The notes beneath the pieces were generated by a model. It saw only the letters and a list, made by a program, of their open reading frames with translations. It was not told the DNA's origin and made no database searches. The position numbers were made by a program, and so were the translations under genes. Below, in pieces: positions 9,362 to 28,280 of a stretch of DNA of 64,000 nt. The stretch comes from an uncultured Bdellovibrionales bacterium (GTDB lineage: Bacteria > Patescibacteriota > Minisyncoccia > Moranbacterales > UBA1568): positions 22,792 to 86,791 of the forward strand of contig CAYLJX010000001.1 of assembly GCA_964384235.1 (NCBI GenBank). The letters run 5' to 3'. Numbering within the stretch: the first letter of the stretch is position 1; every line of letters begins with the position of its first letter.

Positions 9362-9433
9362 ACTGGAATTTCAAGAATTATGCTGGTTATCGGTATGGTA
9401 AGTGTACCACGAATGCCGAAACGGAGCCATTCT

Positions 9434-9790: not shown

Positions 9791-9797
9791 GTCTTTT

Positions 9798-9836
9798 TAT
9801 ACTATAAAAAATATAGTACTATATTTAGTATAGTAT
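9798..9836. promoter_or_regulatory. putative HxlR operator in divergent promoter region
   Basis: Two 7-5-7 inverted repeats, TACTATA-aaaaa-TATAGTA (9800-9818) and TACTATA-tttag-TATAGTA (9817-9835), lie between the HxlR regulator and nitroreductase starts. Confidence 0.4.
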
Positions 9837-9873
9837 CTAGGGGAATAATCAATATAATACAAGTATACAGCAT

Positions 9874-10509
9874 ATGCAAGAAAATATCGTCATGGCGCTC
9901 CGGTGGCGCTACGCGGTCAATGGATTCGATCCGTCGAAGAAGGTAAGCGAAGCGGATCTCGAGACCATTCTCGAGAGCGGTCGGCTCGCGCCGAGCAGTC
10001 TGGGACTCGAGCCGTGGAAGTTCATTGTGGTGGAAAACCCCGAGCTTCGTGGGAAAATCAGGGGAGCGAGTTATGATCAGGCCAAGGTGAGCGAGGCCTC
10101 GCACCTCGTCGTCATTGCGAGGCGGACCGATGTGCGCGAGAATATCGCCCGTGAACGCCTGGAACGCACCGCCGAAATCCAGAAGCAGGACATAAGCGAG
10201 CTCGGCGGCCTCAAACAGATGGTCGAGGGAAGTATCGCCATGCGTGACGACGCGACGCTCGACGCCTGGACCTCGCGCCAGGCCTATATACCCCTCGGCA
10301 TGATGGTGGAGACGGCCTCGCTTCTCGGTATCGATTCGGCGCCGATGGAAGGGTTCGACCCGAATGCGGTTGACGAGGTCCTCGGTCTCACGGAAAAACA
10401 CCTCGCGGCGACGGCTCTGCTCGCTCTCGGGTACCGTGGCAGTGATCCGTCGGCCGATCGCCCCAAGGTCCGCCGCGCCTTCACCGACGTCGTCGAATTC
10501 GCGAAATGA
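9874..10509 (+). CDS. NAD(P)H nitroreductase family oxidoreductase
   Basis: 211 aa. RWRYAVNGFDPSKKV...LAPSSLGLEPWKFIVV is a classic nitroreductase N-terminus. Divergent from the HxlR regulator. Confidence 0.85.
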   Translation: MQENIVMALRWRYAVNGFDPSKKVSEADLETILESGRLAPSSLGLEPWKFIVVENPELRGKIRGASYDQAKVSEASHLVVIARRTDVRENIARERLERTAEIQKQDISELGGLKQMVEGSIAMRDDATLDAWTSRQAYIPLGMMVETASLLGIDSAPMEGFDPNAVDEVLGLTEKHLAATALLALGYRGSDPSADRPKVRRAFTDVVEFAK

Positions 10510-10620
10510 GAAAGGGTGGAAAAGGGATTAAGGGGATTTCTGAGAAAGGGTACCTGTAAGGCGCCCTTTCTTGATTTTAGGCTGGAAAGTTGGTAGGGTT
10601 GATAGGTATCGAAATATCTT

Positions 10621-10709
10621 GGAGAGGTGCCTGAGCGGCTGAAAGGGGCACACTGCTAATGTGTTAACCGGGTAAAACCGGTTCGAGGGTTCGAATCCCT
10701 CCCTCTCCG
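10621..10709 (+). tRNA. tRNA-Ser (anticodon GCT), class II
   Basis: Acceptor GGAGAGG/CCTCTCC, anticodon loop CTGCTAA, long variable arm, T-arm GAGGG-TTCGAAT-CCCTC. The AT-rich island begins directly downstream. Confidence 0.85.
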
Positions 10710-10756
10710 CATCAAGCTTGTTTTATCGAGGGTGACCCGAGAGCCTCAAAACGAGC

Positions 10757-10787
10757 AAAAGAAAACCGCCTTTATTCGGCGGTTTTC
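10757..10787. terminator. bidirectional terminator hairpin
   Basis: AAAACCGCC-tttattc-GGCGGTTTT with T/A runs on both sides. Confidence 0.5.
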
Positions 10788-10802
10788 GTTTGTCTTAACT
10801 TT

Positions 10803-11348
10803 CTACTTTACCCAGCAATCTTTGAGCATCGGTGAACCGATAGTTGCGCTGTTTCCTGTCCCAATCAGGGTGACTGTTTGATCTTTTTTCATAGCAAGCG
10901 CCTTATCCCGCTCACTCTCCTTCATGTAACACTGAGATCCATTGAAGTCATACTCTCCATCAGAAAGTTTCACGATAATTTCGTCATCGAAAGTACCATT
11001 AGTGACCCCAGTAATTTTCCCAGTAATTTCAATTAACTTTCCCTTGTATTTAGAATCTGCGGCTACTTCATTCTCTTTGTACTCCTTTGCCAGGACGGCA
11101 CTAGTTACCGTCACATCAGGTATCGACTTTTCTGGGGCTACAGTTTGTGTATCTGCAGTCTTGTTTTCTTCTGCTGGAGCTCCTGCTATGTCATCAGAGA
11201 CTTTTTGTTTTGTATCTTCTACAGCACTATTACCAATGGCGTAGAGGATAGCAATGATTGCGATGGTGACGACCCACCATTTCTTGTACCACGCTTTCTT
11301 TTCTGGGACATTTTGAGCCTGTCCCGAAGGCTGAAGCTGTTGCTCCAT
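10803..11348 (-). CDS. hypothetical membrane-anchored protein (island)
   Basis: 181 aa with N-terminal TM (WWVVTIAIIAILYAI) and a Lys/Glu-rich extracellular part. No motif. Confidence 0.5.
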   Translation of the reverse strand: MEQQLQPSGQAQNVPEKKAWYKKWWVVTIAIIAILYAIGNSAVEDTKQKVSDDIAGAPAEENKTADTQTVAPEKSIPDVTVTSAVLAKEYKENEVAADSKYKGKLIEITGKITGVTNGTFDDEIIVKLSDGEYDFNGSQCYMKESERDKALAMKKDQTVTLIGTGNSATIGSPMLKDCWVK

Positions 11349-11584
11349 ATTATTGTTGCTAAGGAATTATTAAATTTGAGAATCCAGTTCTGAGAACACA
11401 AAAGGCCCTACGAACCGGTGGCAATCCTTTCGGACTGTCTCGGCGCTCTTTCGAACGTCGACCTTAGCAACAAGTACCGGCCATAGGGCCGTTTCTGTTG
11501 CTAAGGGTTTTATTGCGCCATGCCCGTATTGCTACGAGTTTAGGCATTATTGTACCTCAATTATAGCTTTTTAAGGGACGAAAA

Positions 11585-12940
11585 TCAACTTTCCGATTTT
11601 ATGGTGGTTTCATACTTCCTGAGGGTTAATTTCTTATCCTTTCCCAATACCAATCGGCTTTTGAGACTCGCCAGGAGCTCTCTTTTCTCGATCATCCGAC
11701 CTTCTCGTAGGATGTACTTGGCGTATGTCCGGATATCGAACTCTTGCTTCTTCTCCATCTCCGCTTCCTGGCCATGCATCCGGAGCACGGTGTGCTGGAA
11801 TTTGTTGTAGCGCTCGACTTCGTCCTCGAACTGACGCTTCAGCCCGATCTCGTTGATATCGATCACGTCGATCATCTTCGCCATCTGATCGATCAACTCT
11901 TCTTCTCGGAGATATCCCAGCTTGCAAGAGAGATCTCGTGATCGAGTGCAACCATAGTAGATGTATGTTGCCGTGTCTCCGCTTTTCAGTTTCTTGTACT
12001 TTTCATCGGCGGTGATGCCAGATCCGCAGAGTCCGCAAGTAATGAGCTTGGTAAAGGCAAACTCCTTGTTGTCCCGAGTGATCCGGTCTCGCTTCAGTTG
12101 TTCCTGAGTGAGGTCAAAGAGTTCTTTCGTGATAATCGGTTCATGTTTGCCCTCGTACCACTTGCCACTCTCTCTCGGAAACTCAAATGGGCCGTAGTAA
12201 AAAGAAGTTTGGAGAATGCGGTATATATTACTGAGGGAAAGATTCTTGTTGCCTTTGGACTTAAAGTTAAGGTCGAATTTGAGCCAATGGTAGAGTTTCC
12301 GTCCACTCCAGCGCTCGTAGGCGACTTTCTCAAACATCTTACGAACAATCGGACCGCGTTCCGGATCAATAATTACCTGCCCCTTTCGATCAGGAGAAGT
12401 AACATTTAAGTACCCTGTTGGAGCGCAGGTTGGCCACATGCCCATCTCGCAGCGCATCCTGAGTCCTCGCTTCACATTCACGCCTCGATTGTCATTTTCA
12501 AGCTTGGCTTGGGAACCGAGAATCATGAGGAGAAACTTCTCATTGGGTGAATTAGTGAAACACTGTCCGTAAGTACGGATCTCCATGAGAAGTTTTTCAT
12601 CCATGAGATCGACGAGTGAACCAAGGTCACCTGCATTGCGACTCAATCGATCAGGAGCCCAGGTGAGAATCCCGTTGAATCTTCCTTTCCGAATGTCTTC
12701 GATAAGTTCGTTGTACACCGGGCGTCCGCCTGAGGTTTTAGCCGAGTGACTTTCTCTCCGAATCTCAACTATTTCCAATCCATCCCGCTCGGCAATTTGA
12801 AGCATCTCTTTGACCTGCGAATCGATCGAAAGCACCTGACGTTCTTCGGACTCGGTGCTCTTCCGAGCATAGAGGCAATACCGAGTTTTGGTCGGTACTT
12901 GGGTCTCTGTGACCGCTTGATTGGTTGGGCTGGTATTCAT
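11585..12940 (-). CDS. large serine recombinase (resolvase/integrase family)
   Basis: N-terminal resolvase catalytic domain (YARKSTESEERQ with catalytic Ser; LDRLSRN), recombinase domain and C-terminal zinc ribbon (CGLCGS...YYGC). Confidence 0.85.
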   Translation of the reverse strand: MNTSPTNQAVTETQVPTKTRYCLYARKSTESEERQVLSIDSQVKEMLQIAERDGLEIVEIRRESHSAKTSGGRPVYNELIEDIRKGRFNGILTWAPDRLSRNAGDLGSLVDLMDEKLLMEIRTYGQCFTNSPNEKFLLMILGSQAKLENDNRGVNVKRGLRMRCEMGMWPTCAPTGYLNVTSPDRKGQVIIDPERGPIVRKMFEKVAYERWSGRKLYHWLKFDLNFKSKGNKNLSLSNIYRILQTSFYYGPFEFPRESGKWYEGKHEPIITKELFDLTQEQLKRDRITRDNKEFAFTKLITCGLCGSGITADEKYKKLKSGDTATYIYYGCTRSRDLSCKLGYLREEELIDQMAKMIDVIDINEIGLKRQFEDEVERYNKFQHTVLRMHGQEAEMEKKQEFDIRTYAKYILREGRMIEKRELLASLKSRLVLGKDKKLTLRKYETTIKSES

Positions 12941-13024
12941 AGGATCAAGCCAATGAATGACGCAGACCCGAATCCTTGTCTAGACCCTCTCAAAAACCCC
13001 TCAAAGCCTTGTTAAAACCCTCTC

Positions 13025-14464
13025 CTAGAACCAGACGATCTCTTGCCTCCCATGATCCGCCTCGATAATTTTCAGAAGCAAAATAGCGAAAGCATCGGCT
13101 AAATCATCGTGCTTTTCTACCCCAAAACCCACCAACTGCCGGATCAAGTCCTCAGCCCCTTCTTTTGGGAAAAGCACTTTACCGGATTCAATGAGGGGAG
13201 TTGTTAAGGCCAGCCGGGCTCGCTTGTCCTGTCCATGAACCTTCACACCCTGAACAAAGGGTAATCCTCCACGCTGAAGCTCCTCAATGAGCACTCTTTG
13301 GTAAGCGACGTCCTCGACGTAGATATGCGGATAGTCATTATGAACGGTAGTCAAAGCCTTCGCTCTAATGAGAGTTTTGGTTTCGTAAAAGCTTAATCGT
13401 TTATTGACCGGATGAGGCTGAATGTAGATGCGGAGGTCTGGGCCATAGCCGTAAATATGAGCGGTCACCATCGCGGTGCAGTCTGCCGTGTTATTGGAAG
13501 AAATAGCGAGGTCAATACCAATAGCCGAGTAGCGAAATTCACCTTCATTCCACCCAGGAGGGCGATCATAGTAACGGATCTTCTCTGGGAAAATAAGCTG
13601 ACCTTCACTCGGGACAATCTTTAGGAGAAATTCTCTTTGCCAGGCGATATCGTTGCCTACTTTCCGCTCTTCTCGAATCAAATCTTCTTTTGCTGAATAT
13701 TTCCCGGGCCACAGGCATACTCCATCTTTATCAATGAGCGGATACTCCTTAAACACTCCATCAACTTTTCCGTTCTCAATATCTTGCTTCAGTCGCATAA
13801 GAAGAGAATCCTCATGGAGAAGATTTCCGACAAGTACCAGTCGAGTGTTCTGGTCTCCGGCTGGAATGACTTCGCTCGTAAGCCACTGGTAGGTTTTATC
13901 CCGGCTTTCTTTGGTTCGAGTCGAATCCATGTCTTCGAGATCGTCTCCAATAATAAGACTCGGCCGGTACTGATTATGTCGCAGTCCTCGAATACTTTGC
14001 TCACGCGAGGCAATACTGATCCGAGCATTGAGCTTGGTGAAAACAAGAGTAGCCGTACCCCATTCATCCGAATCTTCCTGAAACGGTCCAAGGTCATTCT
14101 TCAAAAGCTCATTGCTTTCAAGCTCTCGCTTAATGTTTACCATGTGCTGTTTGGCCTGGGTCCTCGTCTGGCAGAGAATCAGGATAAACTTATGGGCTTG
14201 TTTTCCAAGAATCGCCCAGAGCGTATACGAGAGCGTAATAATCGTTGACTTGGCCGAGCCACGGAAAGAAACAACGAGCAGGAATTTAATACCCTCGTCT
14301 TCGGTCAAAGCAAAAATATCTTTCTGGAACTCTGCCGTCTCATACTTCACGTAGTGGGCAAAGTAGAAATGGAAGAAGAGTAGATGGTTTTGTCTGACGA
14401 TTTCTCTTCGAACCTCTCGGTCACGAAGCATGTGCTGGAAAACTTTTTGAGAAAGGACGGACAT
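13025..14464 (-). CDS. phage terminase large subunit (TerL)
   Basis: ATPase Walker A VVSFRGSAKST and Walker B LIIGDDLEDM, plus a C-terminal RNaseH-like nuclease with acidic residues (IGIDLA, VEDVAYQ, HDDLADA). Confidence 0.85.
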   Translation of the reverse strand: MSVLSQKVFQHMLRDREVRREIVRQNHLLFFHFYFAHYVKYETAEFQKDIFALTEDEGIKFLLVVSFRGSAKSTIITLSYTLWAILGKQAHKFILILCQTRTQAKQHMVNIKRELESNELLKNDLGPFQEDSDEWGTATLVFTKLNARISIASREQSIRGLRHNQYRPSLIIGDDLEDMDSTRTKESRDKTYQWLTSEVIPAGDQNTRLVLVGNLLHEDSLLMRLKQDIENGKVDGVFKEYPLIDKDGVCLWPGKYSAKEDLIREERKVGNDIAWQREFLLKIVPSEGQLIFPEKIRYYDRPPGWNEGEFRYSAIGIDLAISSNNTADCTAMVTAHIYGYGPDLRIYIQPHPVNKRLSFYETKTLIRAKALTTVHNDYPHIYVEDVAYQRVLIEELQRGGLPFVQGVKVHGQDKRARLALTTPLIESGKVLFPKEGAEDLIRQLVGFGVEKHDDLADAFAILLLKIIEADHGRQEIVWF

Positions 14465-14466
14465 AG

Positions 14467-14856
14467 CTATTTTCCCCCTTTCTTATTCAGTCCAGCGAGC
14501 TTCAAAGCCTGCGTTACAACCGCTTTCTGTTCTCTACTCAGTTCTTTATTTTGGTCTGGCACCGTTGTTACCTCAATACGATCGCGAAATTTCTGGTGTC
14601 GGTGCCGCAGCCAGAAACTAATCGCCGGATAGTTCCTGTCACGAATGAGAGAGATGAGTTGAGACTCGCCCATATCGTTAATGAGAGCTTCACCTTCGAT
14701 CAGAGCCTCTTCCATCGCGTGGCGGAACTTCGAACTTTCTTTCCGCCAGCGATAGACCGTCGCTCGGGCAACCCCGGCTTTCTCGCAGGCGATCTGGATA
14801 ATGGGAATCTTTCTCAAATGATCGAGAAAGATTTGTTTCGTGCGGTTTGCTTTCAT
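14467..14856 (-). CDS. terminase small subunit-like HTH DNA-binding protein
   Basis: 129 aa immediately upstream of TerL with a 4-nt overlap to the MTase. HTH segment IACEKAGVARATVYRWRK. Confidence 0.5.
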   Translation of the reverse strand: MKANRTKQIFLDHLRKIPIIQIACEKAGVARATVYRWRKESSKFRHAMEEALIEGEALINDMGESQLISLIRDRNYPAISFWLRHRHQKFRDRIEVTTVPDQNKELSREQKAVVTQALKLAGLNKKGGK

Positions 14857-16238
14857 ACGCGTACTGCTTTCTTACCAGTCAGTTTTTCCCAGCGTTTCCG
14901 GATCACCTCGGCGTAGATAGGTGACTTTTCCATGAGGTAACAACGCCGCTTCATCTTTTCGCAGGCCATGAGGGTAGAACCGCTTCCACCGAAGGGTTCA
15001 ACAACGAGATCGCCCCGCCGGGTGAGAACCTTGAGGTAAGGAATGAGGATTTCCAATGGCTTGGTGCCGAAGATAATCCCTTGCCCCGAACTCTTCTTGT
15101 CAGCGGCTTTGTACTCGATGAAGTCGGTCGGACAAATCTTCTTCCCTTTCTCATACGATTCCCAGTGCGGCTTTCCACCAATGGCGTAGAGCGCAGTCTC
15201 ATACTCGTTCTGGAGCGGCTCTTCTTCGGGATCAATGTTATACGGCACTTCGCCTCCGCTACCGACCATGGCGATATCGTGCTTGTTGAAGAATTTGTAC
15301 TTGGCCGAGAATCCCTGGACTCGATTCGGGAGATGCCACACGATCATATTCTTCACCCGCCAATACTTCTCCATCTCGTCCCAGATGGTCCGAATATTCT
15401 TCCAGTTTTCGTACACAATGATGGAGAAGTCATCAGAAGCTACTTTCGAAATATTACCCATCCACTTTTCGGTGAAGTCGTCCGGCAAGGCATCAGTTTC
15501 GAGATAGCGACGGTTACGTTTCGCACCAAAGCCTTCAGTCGCCTCGCCGTTCTTTTTCTTGCCCCTGAGATAATCGAGGATGTAGGGCGGATCAGTGAAA
15601 CACATACTAGCCTTCTCATTGCCCATGAGCTTCCACATATCGGCTTCAACCGTTGAGTCACCACACATGAGCTTCGAATCTCCAAGCATCCAGACATCGC
15701 CTTTCTTAATTTCAATATTTTGGATATTGAGGCTCTTGAGTTCTTTCTCGAGGTCAAACATTTCGGGTGTATCTTCCATGGCAAAAATCTCATCGAGGTC
15801 TTCGCTCGAAAATCCGACATCGGCCAAGAACTCTTCACCGAAACTTTTGAGGAGGTCCCAATCGAACTCACCGACATTCTTGTTCAGGCGAATGTTGAGT
15901 TCTTTCTCCTTCGCGATATCTGGGATGGAGAGGTAGACCACGGGCATCTCCTTAATTCCAAGCTTCTTGGCCATGGCAAGACGGAAGTGGCCACCGATGA
16001 CAATGTTCATGCGCTCCGGTGCGCTGTTCACTACCAAGGGATCGATCATCCCAAAGCGCCGGAGACTCTCTTGGAGTTCTTCCTCTGCTTCTTTGCTCCA
16101 TTTCCTCGGGTTATATTCCGATGCCTTCAGCGCTGAGGCATCAACGTACTCGACCTGCAACCGACTGTCTTCATGCTTTGTCATATGTATGACCCTTAAT
16201 GAATTAGGGCAGGAGGCTTTCGCAAACAAAAAACCCAC
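14853..16238 (-). CDS. ParB-like nuclease domain fused to DNA methyltransferase (N6-adenine/N4-cytosine, beta class)
   Basis: N-terminal ParB motif (VIGGHFRLAMAKKLG). MTase motif IV DPPY (MCFTDPPY) and a C-terminal motif I FGGSGST. Typical phage orphan MTase architecture. Confidence 0.85.
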   Translation of the reverse strand: MGFLFAKASCPNSLRVIHMTKHEDSRLQVEYVDASALKASEYNPRKWSKEAEEELQESLRRFGMIDPLVVNSAPERMNIVIGGHFRLAMAKKLGIKEMPVVYLSIPDIAKEKELNIRLNKNVGEFDWDLLKSFGEEFLADVGFSSEDLDEIFAMEDTPEMFDLEKELKSLNIQNIEIKKGDVWMLGDSKLMCGDSTVEADMWKLMGNEKASMCFTDPPYILDYLRGKKKNGEATEGFGAKRNRRYLETDALPDDFTEKWMGNISKVASDDFSIIVYENWKNIRTIWDEMEKYWRVKNMIVWHLPNRVQGFSAKYKFFNKHDIAMVGSGGEVPYNIDPEEEPLQNEYETALYAIGGKPHWESYEKGKKICPTDFIEYKAADKKSSGQGIIFGTKPLEILIPYLKVLTRRGDLVVEPFGGSGSTLMACEKMKRRCYLMEKSPIYAEVIRKRWEKLTGKKAVRV

Positions 16239-16473
16239 TCTGCGTGAAACACAAAAAAACGAACTGCTTCATTTTTTTATGTCTCCTACAGAATGGGCAT
16301 GATTGAGAGCGGACGCTCTCTTTGGCGAAGAGGCTTCAATCCTTCGCGCTTATCGGCCAAGCCGAGATACATACTCTTTCGAGTGGGAAACTAGATTGTT
16401 TAAGTTTGCTAGTTCAAAGTATATTCTCTCTTGAAAAATCGTCAAGCTGGTCAAAAAGACCAGTATCTGATTC

Positions 16474-16502
16474 TTTACTTACACTGAAAAGCATTGTATA
16501 AT
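16474..16502 (+). promoter_or_regulatory. putative sigma70-type promoter for the island plus-strand operon
   Basis: TTTACT, a 17-nt spacer, then TATAAT (16497-16502) 14 nt upstream of the ATG at 16516. Small inverted repeats (CTGGTC-aaaaa-GACCAG at 16447-16463) lie just upstream. Confidence 0.35.
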
Positions 16503-16515
16503 AGCCGGAAAGCGT

Positions 16516-17307
16516 ATGGATTTTACCCCTTTGATAAACCATTGGAATGGTATCTCCGTGGAACAACGGAGCATTTTGTTGTTCGGCGGACTGATCTCGC
16601 TTGTCACTTTATTCATCGGCTTTATTTTTCGAGAACTTATATGGAAAGCCATTATATGGGTCTTTAGAAAGCTCTTTCATCCAAAGAAGCAATCCGCTGA
16701 ACCAATGAGCACTACTGAGGAAGCAATCTTTGCTTCTGAGGCTGTCGGTTTATCAGAAATCGGTACGCATATCATTGGCTCACGAGTAAATGGAGGTGTT
16801 CAACCGGTTTCAATTCAGATAGTGGGAGCAAATAGTGGACCAATTAATATTTCTCAACCGTTAAACCCAGATCCTAGGGCCACTTTACCGCCGACTAACC
16901 CGGAAACTTCATTGGCAACCCCTGAGGATGCCCTTTCTATTCCACCCAGAAGGAACATTACCGTAGAACTGGAAGAAAAATCTCTTTCAATATGTGGCGA
17001 CATCGAAAGGTATTTCCCAGGAAATGGTGACAGTATCCGAACTGAATATATCGCAGCTCAGAGAGCCAAGACTGACGGAAAAATGGCAATGGCAGCTGGA
17101 AAATATACCAAGATCTTTAATAATATTCTTCGACTTCTCGGAAGTTCACCTCACTGTTCTACTCAAGAACTCAAAGATCTTTTGTCCGAACTAGGCGGTA
17201 ATATTCAAGTCATGGATGAATCATTGAAAATGGGTCACTTAGAGCAGTCAGAGCTCGATAGCTGCGAACTTCATATCATGCGCATTTTCACCAAGTTCCC
17301 CGTATGA
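16516..17307 (+). CDS. hypothetical membrane-anchored protein (island operon gene 1)
   Basis: 263 aa with one N-terminal TM (LLFGGLISLVTLFIGFIF). Stop overlaps the next gene start (ATGA). Confidence 0.5.
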   Translation: MDFTPLINHWNGISVEQRSILLFGGLISLVTLFIGFIFRELIWKAIIWVFRKLFHPKKQSAEPMSTTEEAIFASEAVGLSEIGTHIIGSRVNGGVQPVSIQIVGANSGPINISQPLNPDPRATLPPTNPETSLATPEDALSIPPRRNITVELEEKSLSICGDIERYFPGNGDSIRTEYIAAQRAKTDGKMAMAAGKYTKIFNNILRLLGSSPHCSTQELKDLLSELGGNIQVMDESLKMGHLEQSELDSCELHIMRIFTKFPV

Positions 17308-20300: not shown

Positions 20301-20306
20301 ATTCGT

Positions 20307-21350
20307 ATGGGATTTGAAAGCACAGAAGAGTATAAGAAAATCTTTAAATTTAGCAATAATAAGAGTTTACGACTTCTTACACGAGAAAGTAGTACTATTG
20401 AATTTAAAGTTTCTTTCAACTGGAGGTCGAAGGATGAGTACGCGAAGAGTGTTGCTGCTTTTGCAAATAAACAAGGAGGTTTCCTCATCTTTGGGGTCAA
20501 GGATAAACCAAGGGAGTTAGTTGGCCTTCAATCAGATAAATTCGAGGAGATAGATGAGGCAGTAATTTCTGAATATTTAAATAGCTTGTTTTCTCCTGAG
20601 ATAGAGTTTGAAAAGTTTGTAGTGAAGGTTCGAGATAAGGATGTAGGGGTAATAAAAGTCCATTCTGTAGGTCAGAAGCCTGTCGTAGCAACAAAGAATG
20701 ATGGTTCTGTAAGAGAGGGTGAAATCTATTATCGGTACAATGCAAAAAAGGAGAAAATAAAGTTTCCTGAACTTAGAGAGTTACTGGACAAGATTCGAGA
20801 AGAAGAGCGCAAGGAATGGATGTCTCTGTTTTCAAGAATCTCTAGCATAGGGCCAGAGAATGCAGCGCTTCTAGATATGGCCAGTGGCAGAATAGAGGGG
20901 AAGACAGGTACATTGGTTATAGATAGAAAATTAATTTCTAAACTGAAATTTATTCAGGAAGGAAGGTTTCACGAGACTGGATCTCCTACGCTTAAACTGG
21001 TTGGCGAAGTAAGGCCTATCACAGTAGTGAAATCTAGAAGATCCTCAGCTGGTGGTAAGTTAAAGATTACCAACGATCCATCCGCTCCAGAAGTTAGAGT
21101 TAAAGAAGAGGACTTGTTAAATGAATATTCCCTAGATTACAAAGCTCTTACAAAAGAGCTTGTAAAAAGGTACCAGGATTTCAAACCAAATAAAAAATAC
21201 CACGAGGTCCGTAAATTTCTAATGAAGAAGGAAGGGAACTCATTTACTCGGACACTAAATCCAAAAAATGCTAAGAGTGTAAAGCAGGACTTTTATAGCC
21301 CTAGGATAATTAAGGCGTTCGGTAAGTTTTACAAAAAGAAAACGAGTTAG
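20307..21350 (+). CDS. AlbA_2 (Schlafen-like putative DNA/RNA-binding) domain protein
   Basis: N-terminal region IEFKVSFNWRS...AKSVAAFANKQGGFLIFGVKDKPRELVGL matches the PF04326 AlbA_2 signature (EFK...AFAN..GG.lxxGV.D). Confidence 0.6.
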   Translation: MGFESTEEYKKIFKFSNNKSLRLLTRESSTIEFKVSFNWRSKDEYAKSVAAFANKQGGFLIFGVKDKPRELVGLQSDKFEEIDEAVISEYLNSLFSPEIEFEKFVVKVRDKDVGVIKVHSVGQKPVVATKNDGSVREGEIYYRYNAKKEKIKFPELRELLDKIREEERKEWMSLFSRISSIGPENAALLDMASGRIEGKTGTLVIDRKLISKLKFIQEGRFHETGSPTLKLVGEVRPITVVKSRRSSAGGKLKITNDPSAPEVRVKEEDLLNEYSLDYKALTKELVKRYQDFKPNKKYHEVRKFLMKKEGNSFTRTLNPKNAKSVKQDFYSPRIIKAFGKFYKKKTS

Positions 21351-21353
21351 TTT

Positions 21354-22424
21354 GTGATTTCTTCATATAAATATCTCAAAGACTATACATACTACTCTGA
21401 CCTCTATGATCGCTTCACCATAGAGGAGTGCCAGCGTTGGGAAGACAAGGAATATCCTGTACCACCTGAAGAATCCGACAAGGAAGCAAAACTGAGAAAA
21501 GTAAAAGAAGAATTCCTTCAAAAAGTGGTTACTCCTCTCGGACTCTACTTTCTCACTGCTGACCGCGCTGCAAAGAAACCTGAAACCATTCAGGAATGGA
21601 TGAGGCGAGACCAAGAAAAGGACGAGCGAGTCACCAACGCTGAAGAACCGAGAAGTATCCGCTGTCTGGGGTGCAGTGCGTTTTTGACAAACTGCATCTC
21701 GCGAGATCTCATGGATAATCACCAAGGACGAGAAGAGGTCCTTTTTATGTTTGAATGTGGCCAGTGTCACAAACGCCGAGCCTTTTGGGAAGATGGCAGA
21801 GAGTGGGAATACAAACCGAAGTGTATAAAGTGCCAGTCAGAAGTGGCGTCGGAAACGACTAAAAAAGATGCTCTCCTTACCACTCGATACACCTGCTCCC
21901 ATTGTGGTCATGTGGAGATAGATACTATGGATCTCAGTAAGAAAGAAGAGGAAAAGATTGATCCTAATTTTGAGGCTAACCGGAAGAAATACTGTATCTC
22001 AGAGCTCGAAGGACAGCGGATTATCCGTGAATCGGAAGAGATGAAGGAGTTTGTTGATAAATGGAAAGAGAGGGATAAGAACAAAGACCTTTATGATGCC
22101 ATAGGAAAGATACAGAAGCTCACCATTGTTGAGCTCCAAGCTCTCCTTGACCCACTTCTTGAAAAAGCTAGCTATACCAAACTCGAGTTCGAGAAGCCCG
22201 TTCTGGAGAAAGATGTTATCCTCGAATTCGGGCTCCAAGATGCCAAATCTGGCCGAGGAGACTATGATAGCCGTCATGATCTTCAAAAGCTCTTCAAAGA
22301 GGCTCTAAGCCCTACAAATTGGCGCCTGATGAGCGATGGAGTCACTTATCGTCTTGGATTCCTCCAAGGGCGCCTAAAGGGCGTAGAAGGCGAGGAAAAG
22401 TTCAAAGAGCTCCTCGAATCCTAA
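21354..22424 (+). CDS. zinc-ribbon protein, hypothetical
   Basis: Four CxxC pairs (CLGC, CGQC, CIKC, CSHC) forming two predicted zinc ribbons. Otherwise charged and helical. Confidence 0.5.
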   Translation: MISSYKYLKDYTYYSDLYDRFTIEECQRWEDKEYPVPPEESDKEAKLRKVKEEFLQKVVTPLGLYFLTADRAAKKPETIQEWMRRDQEKDERVTNAEEPRSIRCLGCSAFLTNCISRDLMDNHQGREEVLFMFECGQCHKRRAFWEDGREWEYKPKCIKCQSEVASETTKKDALLTTRYTCSHCGHVEIDTMDLSKKEEEKIDPNFEANRKKYCISELEGQRIIRESEEMKEFVDKWKERDKNKDLYDAIGKIQKLTIVELQALLDPLLEKASYTKLEFEKPVLEKDVILEFGLQDAKSGRGDYDSRHDLQKLFKEALSPTNWRLMSDGVTYRLGFLQGRLKGVEGEEKFKELLES

Positions 22425-22497
22425 CAAAAGAAAAAAGGTCTTGGTAAATAAGGTTTTACAGGAGACAATACAACTAGTTCTTCTGGGAGTCTTATCG

Positions 22498-22526
22498 TGG
22501 ACAAAACGTGTTTTTTGATGTATAAT
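22498..22526 (+). promoter_or_regulatory. putative internal promoter
   Basis: TGGACA, a 17-nt spacer, then TATAAT (22521-22526) in the 142-nt gap before the kinase gene. Confidence 0.4.
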
Positions 22527-22566
22527 TCACTCAATTTTTAACTCCGATAAAGGTAATCAAAAGAAG

Positions 22567-23178
22567 ATGTCATTCGAAAGCTACAAGCAAGATTCTCGGG
22601 ATATGCATCTCAACCCTGCCGAAGGTAGGGAGTATGCGGAGGCGCTAGAATCATTATTGGAAAAATACAAGGATAAGAGAGTGCTTGTACTTGCGCCACC
22701 AAGTGTTGGGAAGAGTACCATTCTTCAGCATATTAAGGAGGGCGTTGATTTGGATGTGGTGTTTGATGATATGCCAGAAGAATTTAAAAGACATGTGCTG
22801 CACCACGAACACCCGTTTATGTTTATTGATGGTGATAAGAAAACGGTAAAATACACTGAAAAAGAATTTGATCCAATGAGTGATGAGCATCAGGACCACC
22901 TAAAAAAGACAACGGAATCATTGACAGAATATACTCAGAACAAGGTAAATATTGAAGCAGGGCATCCCGCTTTCGGGAGTACACTCATAGATGCGGATGT
23001 CGTTATTTATCTTAAGATTTCTGACGAGGAGCTCAAGAAAAGAATTGAGGCACGGAATACCAAGACTTATCGACTTGCTCAGCTCGAAAGGGTAAAAGCG
23101 ATAAAGAAAAACCTTGAAGCTGATTTGGAGAGATTGAGATCGGAAGGAAAGATTGTCGAGGAGCTGGCAATCTCATAA
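22567..23178 (+). CDS. P-loop NTPase / nucleotide or polynucleotide kinase-like protein
   Basis: Walker A LAPPSVGKST and Walker B-like VVFDD. 203 aa. Confidence 0.6.
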   Translation: MSFESYKQDSRDMHLNPAEGREYAEALESLLEKYKDKRVLVLAPPSVGKSTILQHIKEGVDLDVVFDDMPEEFKRHVLHHEHPFMFIDGDKKTVKYTEKEFDPMSDEHQDHLKKTTESLTEYTQNKVNIEAGHPAFGSTLIDADVVIYLKISDEELKKRIEARNTKTYRLAQLERVKAIKKNLEADLERLRSEGKIVEELAIS

Positions 23179-23201
23179 ATTACCTAAAACAACGTAAACA
23201 T

Positions 23202-23744
23202 ATGAAAATGCAGAAGAAGATAGTCTTTTTGGATGGCGACGGGACGCTCTGGTATCCCAAAGCGACGAAGCGTACGCAAAAACCTCACTGGATTTACCAT
23301 GATCCAGCAACGAAAGATAACTACCTTGAACATCTGGAGTTGACACCTCGGACCAAGGAAACCCTCGAAGCTCTACGAGAAAAGGGAGTCTACCTCGTAG
23401 TGCTTTCAGCCAACCCTTACGCTGAAGAAATAGCTATCAAAGAGATTAAAGAACGACTCGAACACTTTGGACTCAGTAGTTTGTTCTATGCACACAGATC
23501 TTCGAGTGGAGATGATCCAAATGGTAAAGCAACCATTATGGTGGAAATTCTCTCTTCTCTAGGTCTCCGTAAAGAGGACGCGCTGATGGTTGGAGATAGC
23601 TACTTCTATGACTATCTTGCAGCCAAGAATGTTGGTATAGATGCTCTGTTTATTGAAAATGGCGTTTCAAAAATGCCAGAGGAAATCCCTCAGGATTTGC
23701 AGTCAATCAAAGAGGTCCACGAATTGCTTGATATATTGGCCTGA
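23202..23744 (+). CDS. HAD-superfamily phosphatase
   Basis: Motif I FLDGDGTLW (DxDxT), motif II S (VVLSANP), motif III K, and motif IV GDSYFYD. Confidence 0.7.
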   Translation: MKMQKKIVFLDGDGTLWYPKATKRTQKPHWIYHDPATKDNYLEHLELTPRTKETLEALREKGVYLVVLSANPYAEEIAIKEIKERLEHFGLSSLFYAHRSSSGDDPNGKATIMVEILSSLGLRKEDALMVGDSYFYDYLAAKNVGIDALFIENGVSKMPEEIPQDLQSIKEVHELLDILA

Positions 23745-23751
23745 GGTTTCT

Positions 23752-26700
23752 ATGAATGCAGATACCGCAAGAGAAAAGCTCTTAGAATTTAACCAGAAGG
23801 GCGATGCCAGTATACTGGTTGGCTTGCTGGGTATTGCTGAGCATGATGTCGAAAGTGCCATACGTTTTATTAATGCACATGCTGACAAGAATCAGCTAGA
23901 GACATTAGTATTTCAACCACTGAAGGTCAATGAAAAGCATCTCGTATTTGTTGATCCATCGCTTGAGATCAAGGCGGTTAGTACGGATATTGTTCATCTG
24001 AAAAAGACGCTGGAGCAGATTAAGATGTATGATAATGAGAATCCTGTAAGTGTAACTTCCAGTGTTGACTTGAGATGCTTACTCCTCTCGTTAGCAAAGT
24101 CAGAACTCAAATCTTATGATGTTTTTACGAATTTCAATACCGATAACTTAGGTAAAGCCACTCTAAGAAAGTGCCTCGAAGATGAAAAGAACTGGATTAA
24201 AGAAAGAGTTCAAATTCAAAAAGAGCTCATAAATCGCAGCTATAGAAGCGCGGTAGCCTTGGCACGAAAAGTAGCGCGATCCAAAAAGCTCGGGAGAGGT
24301 ATTTACTGCGTGAGAGGGTCTGTGGCTTCAGGAAAGTCTTCATTTATTGAAGGTATCCTTCGCCAGAATATACGGGTATTTGAGAACTCTGGTGGAGTTT
24401 TAAATACTGACGCTCTGAAAAGACAGCTCCTAGTCAATACCCTAAATGTGACTGGTCACGCGCTTTCCGGGTATCTCTTTCACGAGGAAGCTTCAGTCAT
24501 CAGTGAAAAAGTCCTCAAGCTAATTAAAAAATCAACCTCTGGCTACGTAGTTGATAGGAGAATGCAAGATGCTACTGACCTTGATGAATTATTAGTAGAT
24601 GCTGCCGAGAGAAAATTGCCAGTTACCATCTTTGACCTGAAAGTAGATTTCATAACATCAGCTCTGCGTGTTCTTGAGAGAACAGGCGTATATCCAAGCG
24701 ATCCTACGCCAGACTTTTTAGCCTTGTACAAAAGCTATAGAACCATAGAGGAAGGTCGCCTATCCTTCTTAGAAAAATCACTTCGTGCAAAGTCCGTAAA
24801 AAATTACTCTGTTGTTCGAGTGAATAGTAATGGGCATCCGGTCATTGTTAATCTCAAGAAGGACTATAGGGTTAATAAGAAGAGTACGGAACAGGAGTCG
24901 GAAGTGCGATATATAGCAAGTGCTGATAGTTTGCGCGATACAGTGCTCTCTAATGGAAAAACACTCCAGCATACCCTTGATGAGCACTCATACAAGAACT
25001 ACAACATGCGCTATTCTCGGCAAGAGTATTTGGATAGTCTTTTGCATAATATCGAAAAGACTAGCAGAACATTTGCTGGTGAGTTAAATGTCTCTGCATC
25101 AAAAGATAAGTCTCGGCTAGTCAATTTGTTCATGCCGAAGAACGATCTGGCTGATACAACAAGGAATAATATCACTCAAGCATTTGATTTTGTATATGAG
25201 AATAAAAACCTGCCTCTGATATCACCGCAGGTACTCCGAGATTTTATTGATCAAATAGCAAGGATTGTTAATCAAGGGATCGTAAGCGACGAGAATCTGA
25301 TTCTTCGGAGTGGGAGTAATTCCCATAAGTATTTTTATGTAGATACTCGATACATAGAAAGGTTCTATCAATCATTCGTGAATCAGTTTTTCGAAAAGCT
25401 CAATGATCCGGTGATTACATCAGTGGATCTTGCTGCATGGGTTGAATGGAATATCGACTTCTGCGGACATATTTTTGTCGACGGCTGTGGCAGAATAGCC
25501 AAGGTTGTAAGCGCCTGGTTGTTAATGAGAGATAATAGCGACTTACCAGATTATAGTATTGGTCAGGATGGGTTTGAAACAGTCCGAGAATCCTATCGAA
25601 GAAGGTTTGCTCTGAAAGCTAGAGTTCGTCTTCAAATACCAGCTGATACAAAGAGTTATCGTAGCTTTTTGGCCTACTATAGGAGATTGTTCAACCCTAA
25701 GGAAACCTATAAAGTTCTTGCTTCAGGAGGTTTAATATACAATTCATCAGGGCAATTTTTGATACTCCAGACCAGTAAAGGTAAAGATTATGGAAAATGG
25801 GTCGTACCAGGTGGTAAACTTGGCGTTCAAGAGACTCCTGTCGCAGCTTTTGTTCGTGAGGTTTTCGAAGAAACGGGACTGAAGATTGATCACATCATGC
25901 TGATGGGAGTACGAGACTATACGGCAAAAAGTGGTAACCACTATCATTTTTACGACTATACCTCCACTGTTGTAGAAGAGAAAGAAATCAGGATCAATGA
26001 GGAATCACTTTCCTTCAAGTGGATTACGAAGGACCAGATACCAAATTATAAATTTACAGACTCTATTGCTAACTTTGTCAATAAGTACTTTGCATTGGAA
26101 CGCTTGGATATCTATAGCAAGGTAGTTACGGTTCCTGATAAGAACTTTGATTCCCCATACCTAGATGATCACACGATGACTGTTTCATTGGAAAAGTATG
26201 TTCAATCCAAACTACCAGTAGAGCTGATAACGACTAAAGTTAAGACAATAGATAGGGTAGAAGTCCACGGTATATATCCAGATCTTAAGGTTTTAAATGA
26301 TCTTAACCTTGGATTTAATATCCTGGAGGTAATTCACTTCAGTAAACAAAAAAGTGACAACAGCAACAGTTTGAGGCCGATGTTCTTATTAGCTGAAAAA
26401 GACTCTAAGAAACTCCTTGTTTGCTGTGTAACCCCGGGCCGGGATTTATTGATCCACTACGCTTCTATGTTGAAGTATTATTTCAGAAACTCATCAACTC
26501 CTGTATTGGCTTATGCTTATCCGTTCGCCGAAAAGAAAATCGATAAATGGACTGGGTTGGATAACAAGATGATTATAAAAAACGATATCGTTATCCTTGG
26601 TTACAGTACTTTCTTTAGGAATCAGTTTGAGAAAGACCCTGATTTTTCCGTACTCAGCACCTATCAGAACAAGTATTACTCTGCTACGAGATTTATTGCT

Positions 26701-27285
26701 AAAAATGGCAAGATAGTAAATTGTCTTGAAGCAAACTATGGACATTGGGGTGACATAAGTGACTTTTTGGCGCAGAAGATATGTCAGTTACATGCATCAG
26801 AAATTCTACACATAGGTAAGGTTGGTACTTTGAAGTCTCCGAGCGAAGTGTATAAGCGAATCTATATACCGAAATCTTTCGTCATAGGAAGAAGGAATGA
26901 GATTATGAGTATTGGCTCCAGAATCAGTAACTCGATGGAGTACATAAAGGAACATTCTTCCTTGGCACACGTTTCAGTATCTACAACAATGGAAGAAACA
27001 TTTGCTCAACGGAAAAACTTATCTCAAAAAAAGGTCGACACTATAGATATTGAATCTTCAAAGATTGCCCGTGCGGTTGCCCTATACAACTTAGCAAATA
27101 AGGCAAAAGTGAAGTTTGGAGCAATACACTTCTCTTCTGATTATTTGAAAAAGCCAGATGAGGTCGGTAATGGTGCAGATTTGGATTTGGCAACCAATAG
27201 AGAGGAATTGGAATACAGAAAGAAAAGTATCCTGATTGAAATTTCGTCTGTTATAAAAAAACATCTTCTAAAGACAAGTTCTTAG
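23752..27285 (+). CDS. 1177-aa multidomain protein: P-loop (zeta-toxin/AAA-like) kinase, Fic/Fido motif, Nudix hydrolase, nucleoside phosphorylase (PNP_UDP_1)-like
   Basis: Start taken at ATG 23752 (MNADTAR); the tracked ORF start at 23641 would overlap the HAD gene. Walker A GSVASGKSS (res 189-197). Fido motif HIFVDGCGR (res 573-581). Nudix box GGKLGVQETPVAAFVREVFEETGL (res 686-709). C-terminal VSVSTTMEETF...DIESSKIARAVALYNLANKAKVKFGAIHFSSDY resembles the DeoD/MTAN active-site region. Confidence 0.75.
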   Translation: MNADTAREKLLEFNQKGDASILVGLLGIAEHDVESAIRFINAHADKNQLETLVFQPLKVNEKHLVFVDPSLEIKAVSTDIVHLKKTLEQIKMYDNENPVSVTSSVDLRCLLLSLAKSELKSYDVFTNFNTDNLGKATLRKCLEDEKNWIKERVQIQKELINRSYRSAVALARKVARSKKLGRGIYCVRGSVASGKSSFIEGILRQNIRVFENSGGVLNTDALKRQLLVNTLNVTGHALSGYLFHEEASVISEKVLKLIKKSTSGYVVDRRMQDATDLDELLVDAAERKLPVTIFDLKVDFITSALRVLERTGVYPSDPTPDFLALYKSYRTIEEGRLSFLEKSLRAKSVKNYSVVRVNSNGHPVIVNLKKDYRVNKKSTEQESEVRYIASADSLRDTVLSNGKTLQHTLDEHSYKNYNMRYSRQEYLDSLLHNIEKTSRTFAGELNVSASKDKSRLVNLFMPKNDLADTTRNNITQAFDFVYENKNLPLISPQVLRDFIDQIARIVNQGIVSDENLILRSGSNSHKYFYVDTRYIERFYQSFVNQFFEKLNDPVITSVDLAAWVEWNIDFCGHIFVDGCGRIAKVVSAWLLMRDNSDLPDYSIGQDGFETVRESYRRRFALKARVRLQIPADTKSYRSFLAYYRRLFNPKETYKVLASGGLIYNSSGQFLILQTSKGKDYGKWVVPGGKLGVQETPVAAFVREVFEETGLKIDHIMLMGVRDYTAKSGNHYHFYDYTSTVVEEKEIRINEESLSFKWITKDQIPNYKFTDSIANFVNKYFALERLDIYSKVVTVPDKNFDSPYLDDHTMTVSLEKYVQSKLPVELITTKVKTIDRVEVHGIYPDLKVLNDLNLGFNILEVIHFSKQKSDNSNSLRPMFLLAEKDSKKLLVCCVTPGRDLLIHYASMLKYYFRNSSTPVLAYAYPFAEKKIDKWTGLDNKMIIKNDIVILGYSTFFRNQFEKDPDFSVLSTYQNKYYSATRFIAKNGKIVNCLEANYGHWGDISDFLAQKICQLHASEILHIGKVGTLKSPSEVYKRIYIPKSFVIGRRNEIMSIGSRISNSMEYIKEHSSLAHVSVSTTMEETFAQRKNLSQKKVDTIDIESSKIARAVALYNLANKAKVKFGAIHFSSDYLKKPDEVGNGADLDLATNREELEYRKKSILIEISSVIKKHLLKTSS

Positions 27286-27308
27286 TGGTTTTCTACGACT
27301 TCTGTATT

Positions 27309-27369
27309 TTGAGACAGAATATTGTCTCAATCTGGTAAAATGAGACAGGGGTTGTCTTGTGTCTCATTT
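27309..27369. repeat. cluster of perfect palindromes with TGAGACA/TGTCTCA core (candidate recombinase or operator site)
   Basis: TTGAGACA-gaatat-TGTCTCAA (27309-27330) and AAATGAGACA-ggggttgtcttg-TGTCTCATTT (27338-27369). Additional TGTCT(T) copies follow. Confidence 0.5.
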
Positions 27370-27492
27370 GTCTTGTTTTATCCCTGAAACCGCGACCCGA
27401 CCTCTTTAATTCACTCGTTGGCCAAGACTCTCAAGAAATCCCTCAACGGCTTGATTTCTCAAAGTTCTAGACCGATGACGCCCGCACTGAAA

Positions 27493-27533
27493 CTCAAAAG
27501 GATACTCGTCCGAGTATCCTTTTGAGTTTTTTT
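27493..27533 (+). terminator. strong intrinsic terminator
   Basis: 16-bp perfect stem CTCAAAAGGATACTCG / CGAGTATCCTTTTGAG followed by TTTTTTT. Confidence 0.7.
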
Positions 27534-27779
27534 GATGAAGGGAGGGATGAGAAGGGTACTTCAGAAAAGCAAACTGCTTTGCTTTTCTGAAGACCCAGGC
27601 TCTGGAGGAGAAGCGGAGGCTCTGCCGAAGCGACGGAGGAAGAGGAATCCCTCCCTTCCCGCCGTAACAAAAATCTCCAGGCTTTATGGCCTGGAGATTT
27701 TTGTTGTATAGTGGGGGTAGAGGAGCTAACTATTTGGCTTCCGTAGGGATGAGAAAAACGGAGTTACAAAAGAATAACT

Positions 27780-28115
27780 ATGGCGACGATAGACGATTTT
27801 CAAAAACTGGATATAAGGGTCGGAAAGATCGTCGAGGCTGATGATTTTCCTGAGGCCAAAAAACCTGCTTACAAACTCAAAATTGATTTCGGTTCCGAAG
27901 TCGGCATAAAAAGCTCATCGGTACAGATTGTCGCACTGTATTCAAAAGACGAACTCATCGGAAAATTAGTTCTGGGAGTAGTCAATTTTCCGCCAAGAAA
28001 AATCGGACCTTTCGAGTCGGAAGTTTTGACTCTCGGAGTACCAGATGAAGACGGCAAGGTTATTTTGATAACTCCCGATAAAGCCGAGCCGATTATCGGT
28101 GGGAAATTATTTTAG
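27780..28115 (+). CDS. csaA: tRNA-binding protein CsaA family
   Basis: DIRVGKIVEAEDFPEAKKPAYKLKIDFG, a classic CsaA/Trbp111 OB-fold. 111 aa. Confidence 0.85.
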   Translation: MATIDDFQKLDIRVGKIVEADDFPEAKKPAYKLKIDFGSEVGIKSSSVQIVALYSKDELIGKLVLGVVNFPPRKIGPFESEVLTLGVPDEDGKVILITPDKAEPIIGGKLF

Positions 28116-28280
28116 GAGGAGCGAAGCGACGCACTTAATCCCTCTCTTTCCGTACAATGAAACTTCCTAATCCTGATATTGAAATATGACAAGAGTGGCG
28201 AGGTATCCGAACGATCACGGACAATATCGAAAATACAAGGATGAATGGATGAATGATCTCAAGTCGCGAATCAACAGAGT

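Follow-up and report, generated by a model that had tools for sequence, protein, structure and literature searches.

A candidate satellite-like integrative defence island encoding its own complete terminase in Patescibacteria

We analysed a 64-kb stretch of contig CAYLJX010000001.1 (hereafter the window; coordinates are window positions, and labels of the form Lnnn denote comparison loci) and found that it contains a 16.8-kb insertion, from 10711 to about 27485, that is polymorphic in a natural population. One half of this island encodes a fusion of a ParB N-terminal domain with an N6/N4 DNA methyltransferase (ParB-MTase), a protein resembling small terminase subunits (TerS), a large terminase subunit (TerL) and a large serine recombinase (LSR) that acts as integrase. 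The other half consists of seven cargo genes. In our judgement the island is, with a probability of about 0.55, an integrative defence island that resembles a phage satellite: it would depend on a helper but encodes a complete terminase of its own, from whose genes we infer packaging. The original prediction, made from the letters of the window, had proposed a phage satellite or a decayed prophage. The first of these is the better supported, as the same backbone recurs without structural genes in more than 100 loci and the motifs of TerL are intact.

The insertion can be seen by comparing two alleles of the same site. The integration target is a tRNA-Ser(GCT) gene on the plus strand (10621-10710; found by ARAGORN and, at 55.5 bits, by the Rfam tRNA model), whose 3' end forms the left junction (attL). 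An ENA scaffold from metagenome ERZ23499410 (L128) carries the empty-site allele: it is 100% identical to the window over 9227-10710 and diverges from 10711, exactly after the tRNA, as expected for the integrative element that had been predicted here. The occupied allele is found in ERZ23499410 as well (L134 and L138), and the presence of both alleles in one sample shows that the island is polymorphic in the population. Past the tRNA, L128 contains a 56-nt terminator-like spacer followed by sequence that is 87.6% identical to 27545-27633. As the spacer aligns with 27486-27544, the right junction probably lies at about 27485. The probable attR (27478-27490, ...CGCCCGC followed by ACTGAAAC, with an uncertainty of about 27450-27545) is placed by this alignment and has CCGC in common with the tRNA end. 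The right end, predicted at 27656, moves about 170 nt to the left.

Near-identical copies of the element (98.9-100%) were found by exact-protein look-ups in metagenome assemblies from about eight sequencing runs. Three Logan contigs of the left flank end at 10712-10714 and contigs of the element begin at 10684/10685, which means that the assembly graph branches at the tRNA 3' end. The sharp drop in GC content that had been noted after the tRNA is confirmed: from about 0.55, GC falls to 0.38-0.49. In 1-kb windows, GC is 0.51-0.60 on both sides of the island and lower within it, at 0.46-0.49 between 11 and 16 kb and 0.38-0.43 between 16 and 28 kb; host levels return by 28-29 kb. In tetranucleotide usage, host segments correlate with the rest of the window at 0.87-0.95 and windows within the island at 0.03-0.65 (about 0.57 for 10711-16238 and 0.10 for 16239-27485). 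The composition of the island is foreign to its host. Its left-terminal ~40 nt (10711-10750, ATCAAGC...GAGAGCC) are missing from L128, are conserved beside the tRNA in two LSR-bearing relatives (L011 and L012) and have no second copy in the window; they are a probable recombinase-binding arm.

All backbone genes lie on the minus strand, and Pfam and PHROGs agree with the identities that had been predicted for them. The ParB-MTase (14853-16184) matches PF01555 (1.8e-20), PF02195 (4.5e-10) and phrog_498 (6e-81); its called ATG start gives 443 aa, and the longest open reading frame (ORF) reaches 16238. The TerS-like helix-turn-helix (HTH) protein (14467-14856) matches two families of terminase small subunits, phrog_4044 (9.6e-11) and phrog_309 (5.9e-8). 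A comparison of 13025-14464 with terminase families, suggested as a check on the prediction, identified this gene as an intact TerL (phrog_38, E 1.6e-74) with the Walker A motif, the Walker B motif and the acidic residues of an RNase-H-like nuclease; a sequence search of TerL against the PDB gave no matches. The LSR (11585-12940; phrog_95, 6e-63) has Resolvase, Recombinase and Zn_ribbon_recom domains and a nucleophile serine in a YARKST motif, and its assignment as a large serine recombinase also agrees with the comparison to the empty allele, which places the insertion precisely at the end of the tRNA. Of the 4-nt start/stop overlaps that were said to join these genes, the one between MTase and TerS exists, whereas TerS and TerL are separated by 2 nt and TerL and LSR by 84 nt; the only other 4-nt overlap joins the first two cargo genes, c263 and c998. 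The minus-strand half also holds, between LSR and tRNA, a Sie-like gene and a LOOT RNA that the prediction did not list (see below). Capsid, portal, tail and lysis families are absent from the island's 12 genes in Pfam, PHROGs, PADLOC and NCBIfam (the four collections behind all family-level negatives for the island), which agrees with the earlier failure to find capsid, portal or tail genes. The divergent intergenic region between backbone and cargo (16185-16515) contains two promoter-like sites, recognised as consensus matches only: one on the minus strand (16445-16418) in front of the backbone operon and one on the plus strand (16474-16502) in front of the cargo operon.

The same backbone with different cargo was recovered elsewhere when we searched other sequences, as the original prediction had recommended. 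A scan of IMG/VR with TerL and LSR queries yielded about 25 contigs in which ParB-MTase (in one or two copies), TerS and TerL are colinear, with a same-strand LSR downstream. The conserved order is ParB-MTase, TerS, TerL, an optional cassette of 0-7 kb and LSR, in one co-oriented string; the gap between TerL and LSR measures less than 400 nt in 16 loci, 0.8-1.6 kb in 11 and 2-7 kb in another 11. When the ORFs of the IMG/VR loci were clustered, only the four backbone genes were conserved, and every other cluster had at most five members. A metagenome scan added 80 loci, with TerS in all 69 that had enough sequence, MTase upstream in 54 of 57, and a same-strand LSR in 23 of the 30 with at least 7 kb downstream. 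The window has the features that define this family: colinear MTase, TerS and TerL with a same-strand LSR downstream (11585-16184), hypervariable cargo and no virion genes. A protein search returned at least 3546 relatives of TerL. The best 120 are 55-65% identical and lie on contigs of up to 494 kb, and all source-named matches among these 120 come from Patescibacteria or an unclassified bacterium.

What varies between these elements is the cargo. Among 149 non-backbone ORFs, the most frequent Pfam families are ResIII (8), N6_Mtase (6), N6_N4_Mtase (5), AAA_15, Eco57I, RVT_1 and AAA_21 (4 each) and Peptidase_S24 (3); lower in the census are MmeI, type I R and S subunits, OLD-TOPRIM, PLD and bAvd. 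In the chromosomal contexts L123-L125 and L221, the same backbone is accompanied by restriction-modification (R-M), NucS, AbiEii, Shedu (SduA_C), type III R-M and SocA genes. By these annotations, the cargo of the family is hypervariable and consists mostly of predicted anti-phage defence: R-M, abortive infection (Abi), Shedu and diversity-generating retroelements (DGRs). DGR-type reverse transcriptases occur in L091, L093, L098, L106 and L107 (IMG/VR) and in L150, L156, L158, L166, L183 and L198, mostly in the cassette slot between TerL and LSR, and two of the IMG/VR loci also encode the bAvd accessory protein. Judged by these positions, at least some DGRs of the Candidate Phyla Radiation (CPR), viewed in the literature as 'cellular', ride this mobile backbone. 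The backbone itself also varies in places. Three loci (L121, L122 and L221) encode two tandem, intact and diverged TerL paralogues after a single TerS. One 39-kb IMG/VR contig (L098/L101) carries two different backbone copies about 28 kb apart and extra distant LSR-like genes, which implies that one genome can hold several family members.

The terminase block is under constraint and of phage origin. Among 27 family TerLs (~58% identity), no variation is seen in Walker A (FRGSAKST), Walker B (GDDLED) or the nuclease residues D318, E384 and D453/D454/D457. Pairwise identities of TerL and LSR co-vary across 54 loci (Mantel r 0.57, p 0.001), which indicates that both genes have moved as a pair. 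In L111-L114, where TerL is more distant (38-41% identity), the next gene encodes a portal/head-morphogenesis protein (phrog_2662, 1.8e-105). Upstream of TerL, L111 encodes an MTase and a candidate TerS (cluster c51), and the arrangement of ParB-MTase, TerS and TerL is also found in the portal-bearing L112. The block therefore derives from an ordinary packaging module of a phage, with replacement of the portal and all that followed it. The nearest TerL of a cultured phage is only ~27% identical.

A phage origin of the TerL block, a low GC content and a location at a tRNA, the latter two being typical of prophages, would also be expected of a decayed prophage that kept its packaging and integration genes after a deletion from portal to lysis. 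The window shows no remnants of capsid, portal or tail genes, and throughout the family TerL is followed by LSR or by a cassette. The same architecture without structural genes, TerL and then LSR, is present in more than 100 loci with TerL identities of 45-65%, and it is implausible that independent decay led to one architecture so many times. The catalytic motifs also do not vary, and TerL diverges in step with LSR. An architecture so conserved and constrained is not the product of a one-off deletion, and we reject this second proposal of the original prediction as very improbable. We give even less credence to the idea that the island is an entire temperate virus of very small size, with capsid proteins hidden among the cargo by their divergence. 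Annotation of CPR phage proteins is indeed poor and several cargo proteins belong to no family, but capsid genes would be conserved and nothing beyond the four backbone genes is. In the window, the proteins without a family comprise a membrane protein, the alpha-solenoid and a protein of 356 aa, and none of them is capsid-like.

The same tRNA site was also compared across related species. Scanning genomes with the nitroreductase of the flank found CPR metagenome-assembled genomes at no more than 70% identity, labelled Peregrinibacteria, Moraniibacteriota and others. In L012, tRNA-Ser(GCT) is followed by the Sie-like gene, LOOT and an LSR that is 93% identical to that of the window at the amino acid level, and then by type I R-M and TIR cargo without a terminase. 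L011 has the same module of Sie-like gene, LOOT and LSR (LSR 66% identical), followed by a TPR-NERD protein, again without a terminase. Flanking host proteins are only ~44-70% identical to those of the window. As the LSR of L012 is so much more similar than this, the LSR module has moved between species. Based on these gene contents, this tRNA-Ser(GCT) is a reused integration hotspot. A related species without LSR (L010) contains the left-terminal ~40 nt (CCGCATCAAGC...GAGAGCC) twice, at 12953-12990 and 13507-13549. The two copies flank a 554-bp segment with a 114-aa ORF directly after tRNA-Ser(GCT), and the arrangement resembles what a remnant or a miniature derivative would leave at this hotspot. 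We rejected L010 as a clean empty site, since it lacks synteny with the window downstream and has this 554-bp remnant of its own; L128, an allele of the same species, was used instead.

The right flank of the island contains further tRNA-like sequences. A host segment of 126 nt on the plus strand (27537-27662) has a strong predicted fold (-62.4 kcal/mol, z -5) with a perfect 15-bp hairpin. The 3' arm of its closing stem mimics the tRNA-Ser 3' end (16/18), and the segment is kept in the empty-site allele at 87.6% identity. The tRNA-end-like 18-nt repeat within it (27645-27662) was rejected as an att site: its score of 13.0 is only marginally above the highest value from shuffled sequences (12.5), and it falls in host sequence outside the insertion. 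A third and weaker copy of the tRNA-end-like sequence (28136-28153) follows a low-GC gene for a CsaA-like tRNA-binding protein (27780-28115). The 126-nt segment and this copy may have been left by earlier integration events or may belong to an RNA that is not yet annotated; for the segment, Rfam gives a sub-threshold RtT match only (E 0.83). Differences between metagenomes in the genes called on the right flank proved to be a gene-calling artefact, the DNA being more than 99.8% identical.

If the island is a satellite with its own terminase, its life cycle could be as follows. Induction would lead to expression of the backbone operon, which in many relatives is probably controlled by an S24/LexA-type repressor; S24 homologues are found in 16 of the 80 metagenome loci and in L091, L097, L110 and L125, and in many relatives they are divergent from the backbone. 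The LSR would then excise and circularise the island, and its TerS would recognise the island's DNA. TerL would dock on procapsids of a co-infecting or resident helper phage and package the island, and the methylase would mark the DNA. In a new CPR cell, the LSR would integrate the island at its target. The cargo, in the window a Sie-like surface protein, a Schlafen-like protein, an alpha-solenoid and a set of kinase, phosphatase and kinase-NUDIX fusion, would meanwhile defend the host, and the diverted procapsids should interfere with the helper. Excision, helper phage, encapsidation and the defensive roles of the cargo are inferred.

Several points weigh against this life cycle. A helper phage, an excised circle (attP) or an encapsidated copy was not observed. 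Among the island's 12 genes there are no HTH repressor, AlpA or S24 families, the island has no primase, helicase or rep families, and no excisionase (recombination directionality factor) is recognisable in this element. As to structural genes in relatives, a portal was found in none of the 80 metagenome loci with a single portal query, and no structural family has two or more members among the 149 ORFs of the census, in which singletons fall outside the count. Of about 50 family loci, only 5 have a tRNA beside the LSR, which leaves the element ends undefined for most relatives. We therefore rejected the tRNA as a general target of the family, and tRNA-proximal repeats in L091, L094 and L098 were not significant. 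The module of LSR, LOOT and Sie-like gene at the same tRNA in L011 and L012 shows that a terminase is not needed for an LSR island to exist. Lastly, the obligate pairing of an MTase with a nuclease/ATPase could also mean defence and not transfer.

In the main rival explanation, the island is a non-transducing integrative defence island, MTase-TerS-TerL is a domesticated phage module that serves the host, and the LSR provides mobility or site-specific capture. The terminase could be a decoy: faced with an incoming phage, it would compete for that phage's DNA or procapsids or cleave them wrongly. It could also be a methylation-gated, ATP-dependent, restriction-like nuclease, with TerS for specificity, TerL as translocase-nuclease and the MTase for self-protection. 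Such a role would fit the near-obligate coupling of the MTase, often in two copies, to TerS-TerL (54/57 loci, here with a start/stop overlap), surroundings that are overwhelmingly defence genes, the lack of replication and excision-control genes in this element, the tandem TerL paralogues of L121, L122 and L221, and the LSR islands of L011 and L012 that move or persist without a terminase. However, ParB-MTase, TerS and TerL form an ordinary phage packaging arrangement, as in the portal-bearing L111 and L112, and both co-transcription and co-divergence with the LSR fit a function in transfer. The ATPase and nuclease activities of TerL normally depend on procapsid and portal, and we know of no precedent for a domesticated terminase defence module. 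We consider domestication unlikely on balance, though the near-obligate MTase and the terminase-free islands of L011 and L012 keep it in play. More doubtful is the broader proposal that MTase-TerS-TerL does not serve to fill capsids at all and is a domesticated, methylation-gated, ATP-driven translocase-nuclease on LSR islands across the CPR, with LOOT as a regulatory part of the platform. It could then act in restriction-like or anti-packaging immunity, or in capsid-independent processing of DNA for transfer between naturally competent CPR cells.

An external helper would be unnecessary if the particle genes were located elsewhere in the same CPR chromosome, as in a split system or one like a gene transfer agent (GTA). 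The terminase is intact and conserved without linked structural genes and the elements are chromosomal in many CPR genomes, as such a system would require. The island is polymorphic within a population, foreign in composition, exchanged horizontally between species and linked to an integrase, though, and these traits fit a selfish element and not a host-controlled GTA. The scans that we ran also found no capsid cluster in the 64-kb window, with annotation covering the island and its flanks. We regard a GTA-like system as improbable.

Compared with known satellites, the island works most like a PLE (phage-inducible chromosomal island-like element; LSR and own TerS) and a capsid-forming phage-inducible chromosomal island (cfPICI; TerS and TerL), but it fails defining features of PICIs, cfPICIs and PLEs. 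PLEs are integrative satellites of ~18 kb with a large serine recombinase, their own TerS and no capsid genes that protect the host population, and they are the only reference satellites with a serine recombinase. Unlike the island, with its full TerL and MTase, they have no TerL and use the terminase motor of ICP1. They also have their own replication initiator and nucleases, whereas no replication gene is recognisable in the island. PLEs are limited to Vibrio and ICP1, whereas the host flanks and relatives of the island are CPR/Patescibacteria; kinship in sequence was neither tested nor seen. The cfPICI satellites reportedly (Alqurainy and colleagues, in 2023) carry genes for both TerS and TerL, which confines packaging to their own DNA. 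The island shares these two genes, but cfPICIs also have capsid, portal, protease, connectors and a tyrosine integrase, none of which are present here.

The original prediction had called the island 'PICI-like'. Like PICIs and the Staphylococcus aureus pathogenicity islands (SaPIs), it is a site-specific island in the range of ~10-17 kb with TerS, accessory or defence cargo and no virion or lysis genes. PICIs integrate by means of a tyrosine recombinase and carry primase/rep as well as a master repressor in a divergent regulatory module (stl-str or alpA), and they lack TerL. The island has a serine integrase and a full TerL, and no replication module or repressor was found in this copy, so membership of the PICI family does not stand. 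Marine VEIMEs (module 3) and Tycheposons are environmental integrative elements with some serine recombinases, some tRNA sites, R-M/Abi cargo and sometimes TerS (PMC9618062). The same paper describes TerS homologues and 'motor-like ATPases' and presumes large terminase subunits to be helper-phage functions. These elements differ from the island in their marine hosts, and a colinear MTase-TerS-TerL-LSR backbone is not described in PMC9618062. The packaging module of temperate Caudoviricetes (ParB-MTase, TerS, TerL, portal) matches the first three backbone genes, with the portal kept in L111-L114; in the family, the portal and downstream morphogenesis genes are replaced by the cassette slot and LSR. 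The literature that we searched contains no description of MTase-TerS-TerL-LSR elements or of TerL-encoding, capsid-less CPR satellites, and as its coverage is incomplete a prior description is possible. The element family is apparently undescribed.

The cargo half of the window consists of seven plus-strand genes (16516-27285). The prediction had left their function open. They are probably genes for defence or toxins, among them those for a Schlafen/AlbA_2 protein, a P-loop kinase, a HAD phosphatase, an AvrRxo1-like kinase-NUDIX fusion and an alpha-solenoid that resembles the Avs4 sensor. PADLOC reports candidate-system (PDC) and generic MTase matches and no named system for this cargo. The first gene (c263, 16516-17307) encodes a 263-aa membrane protein with a visible transmembrane segment and no match in the four collections. 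The second (c998, 17304-20300) encodes a 998-aa alpha-solenoid, predicted by AlphaFold2 to be all-alpha (pLDDT 85.8), with 22 homologues, of which each source-named match is CPR. A sequence search against the PDB gave no matches for this protein. The best PDB fold match of the model is Avs4 (8dgf_A, TMq 0.37), and all others are to HEAT repeats of a generic kind. Among named complete genomes, the closest (L140, CP064975.1, 'Ca. Moraniibacteriota', 1.2 Mb) contains a 52%-identical c998 homologue that lies outside any terminase element, amid host genes that resemble the window flanks (HxlR, SurA_N, RRM, MatE). The c998 gene thus also exists as stand-alone chromosomal cargo. We rejected c263 and c998 as a fixed pair, as in CP064975.1 an unrelated gene precedes the c998 homologue.

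The third cargo gene (20307-21350) encodes a Schlafen/AlbA_2-domain protein (PF04326, 5.6e-24) that matches the PADLOC candidates PDC-S19 (5.6e-28) and PDC-S50. The fourth (21354-22424) encodes a 356-aa protein without a family. Its homologues reside in other elements of the family: one in L109 is 37% identical, and L154, L185 and L195 also contain matches. The fifth (22567-23178) encodes a P-loop protein resembling nucleotide kinases (AAA_18, 1.3e-7, with weak dNK and adenylate-kinase matches), and the sixth (23202-23744) a HAD-family phosphatase (PF00702, 1.2e-13; HAD_2; HAD and nucleotidase models of NCBIfam). The seventh (23752-27285) encodes a 1177-aa fusion of an AvrRxo1/zeta-toxin-like kinase (residues ~136-380; XopAJ/AvrRxo1 in NCBIfam, 8.3e-31) with a NUDIX domain (~656-780; PF00293, 2e-16) and unassigned regions. 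In the PDB it matches AvrRxo1 (4z8q, 6e-8) and NUDIX structures. AvrRxo1 is a NAD 3'-kinase toxin. The set of kinase, phosphatase and AvrRxo1-like kinase-NUDIX fusion probably attacks NAD or nucleotides and may act in abortive infection. The fusion is unusual and is preceded by the kinase and phosphatase genes (22567-23744); no cognate antitoxin was recognisable.

At the other end of the island, between LSR and tRNA, lie the Sie-like gene and the LOOT RNA, both on the minus strand. The Sie-like gene (10803-11348) encodes a membrane-anchored OB-fold protein (tRNA_anti-like; PF12869, 2e-19) with an N-terminal transmembrane segment visible in the translation. It matches phrog_8545, 'superinfection exclusion Sie-like' (6e-26), and superinfection exclusion is its putative function. 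A bidirectional terminator-like hairpin (10761-10787) separates it from the tRNA. LOOT (Rfam RF03000; 11420-11546) scores 63.9 bits against a gathering threshold of 46.4 and covers the full length of the model (positions 1-121). It appears to form the 5' leader of the Sie-like gene and lies directly 3' of the LSR, with a promoter-like site at 11588-11560.

LOOT exceeds the Rfam threshold in the window and in seven other loci (L011, L012, L093, L096, L097, L107 and L119), with the same position in L011 and L012 as in the window. In 83 family loci, a covariance model built from these eight copies found 25 further matches (E<1e-5). Most copies are located 190-270 nt upstream of the LSR start and on the opposite strand to the backbone; the others lie just downstream of the LSR, as in the window. 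An ORF begins 48-92 nt downstream of most copies, and 8-17 nt downstream of five. This ORF usually encodes a small membrane-anchored or Sie-like protein and at times an unrelated one, e.g., a DUF262-like protein. The position beside the LSR and the ORF shortly downstream suggest that LOOT is a cis-acting leader of the cassette slot beside the LSR and not a free-standing small RNA (sRNA). Rfam lists LOOT, an orphan family, as an sRNA; here it is a recurrent part of MTase-TerS-TerL-LSR elements. In the literature on LOOT function we found nothing beyond a mention of its covariation.

CPR bacteria, or Patescibacteria, make up a large share of bacterial diversity, and their phages and mobile elements are barely known. 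If the satellite-like reading is true, the four-gene backbone would be a widespread CPR vehicle for R-M, abortive-infection, Shedu-like and DGR cassettes, and a matching set of helper phages would be implied. The backbone offers an easy marker for mining new CPR defence systems, and its LSRs are a source of site-specific integrases, some of which target tRNA genes. For the orphan LOOT RNA there is now a genomic context that makes its function testable. The island would represent a new satellite design, with a complete terminase holoenzyme and a serine integrase but no capsid, that stands between PLEs, with TerS only, and cfPICIs, with terminase and capsid.

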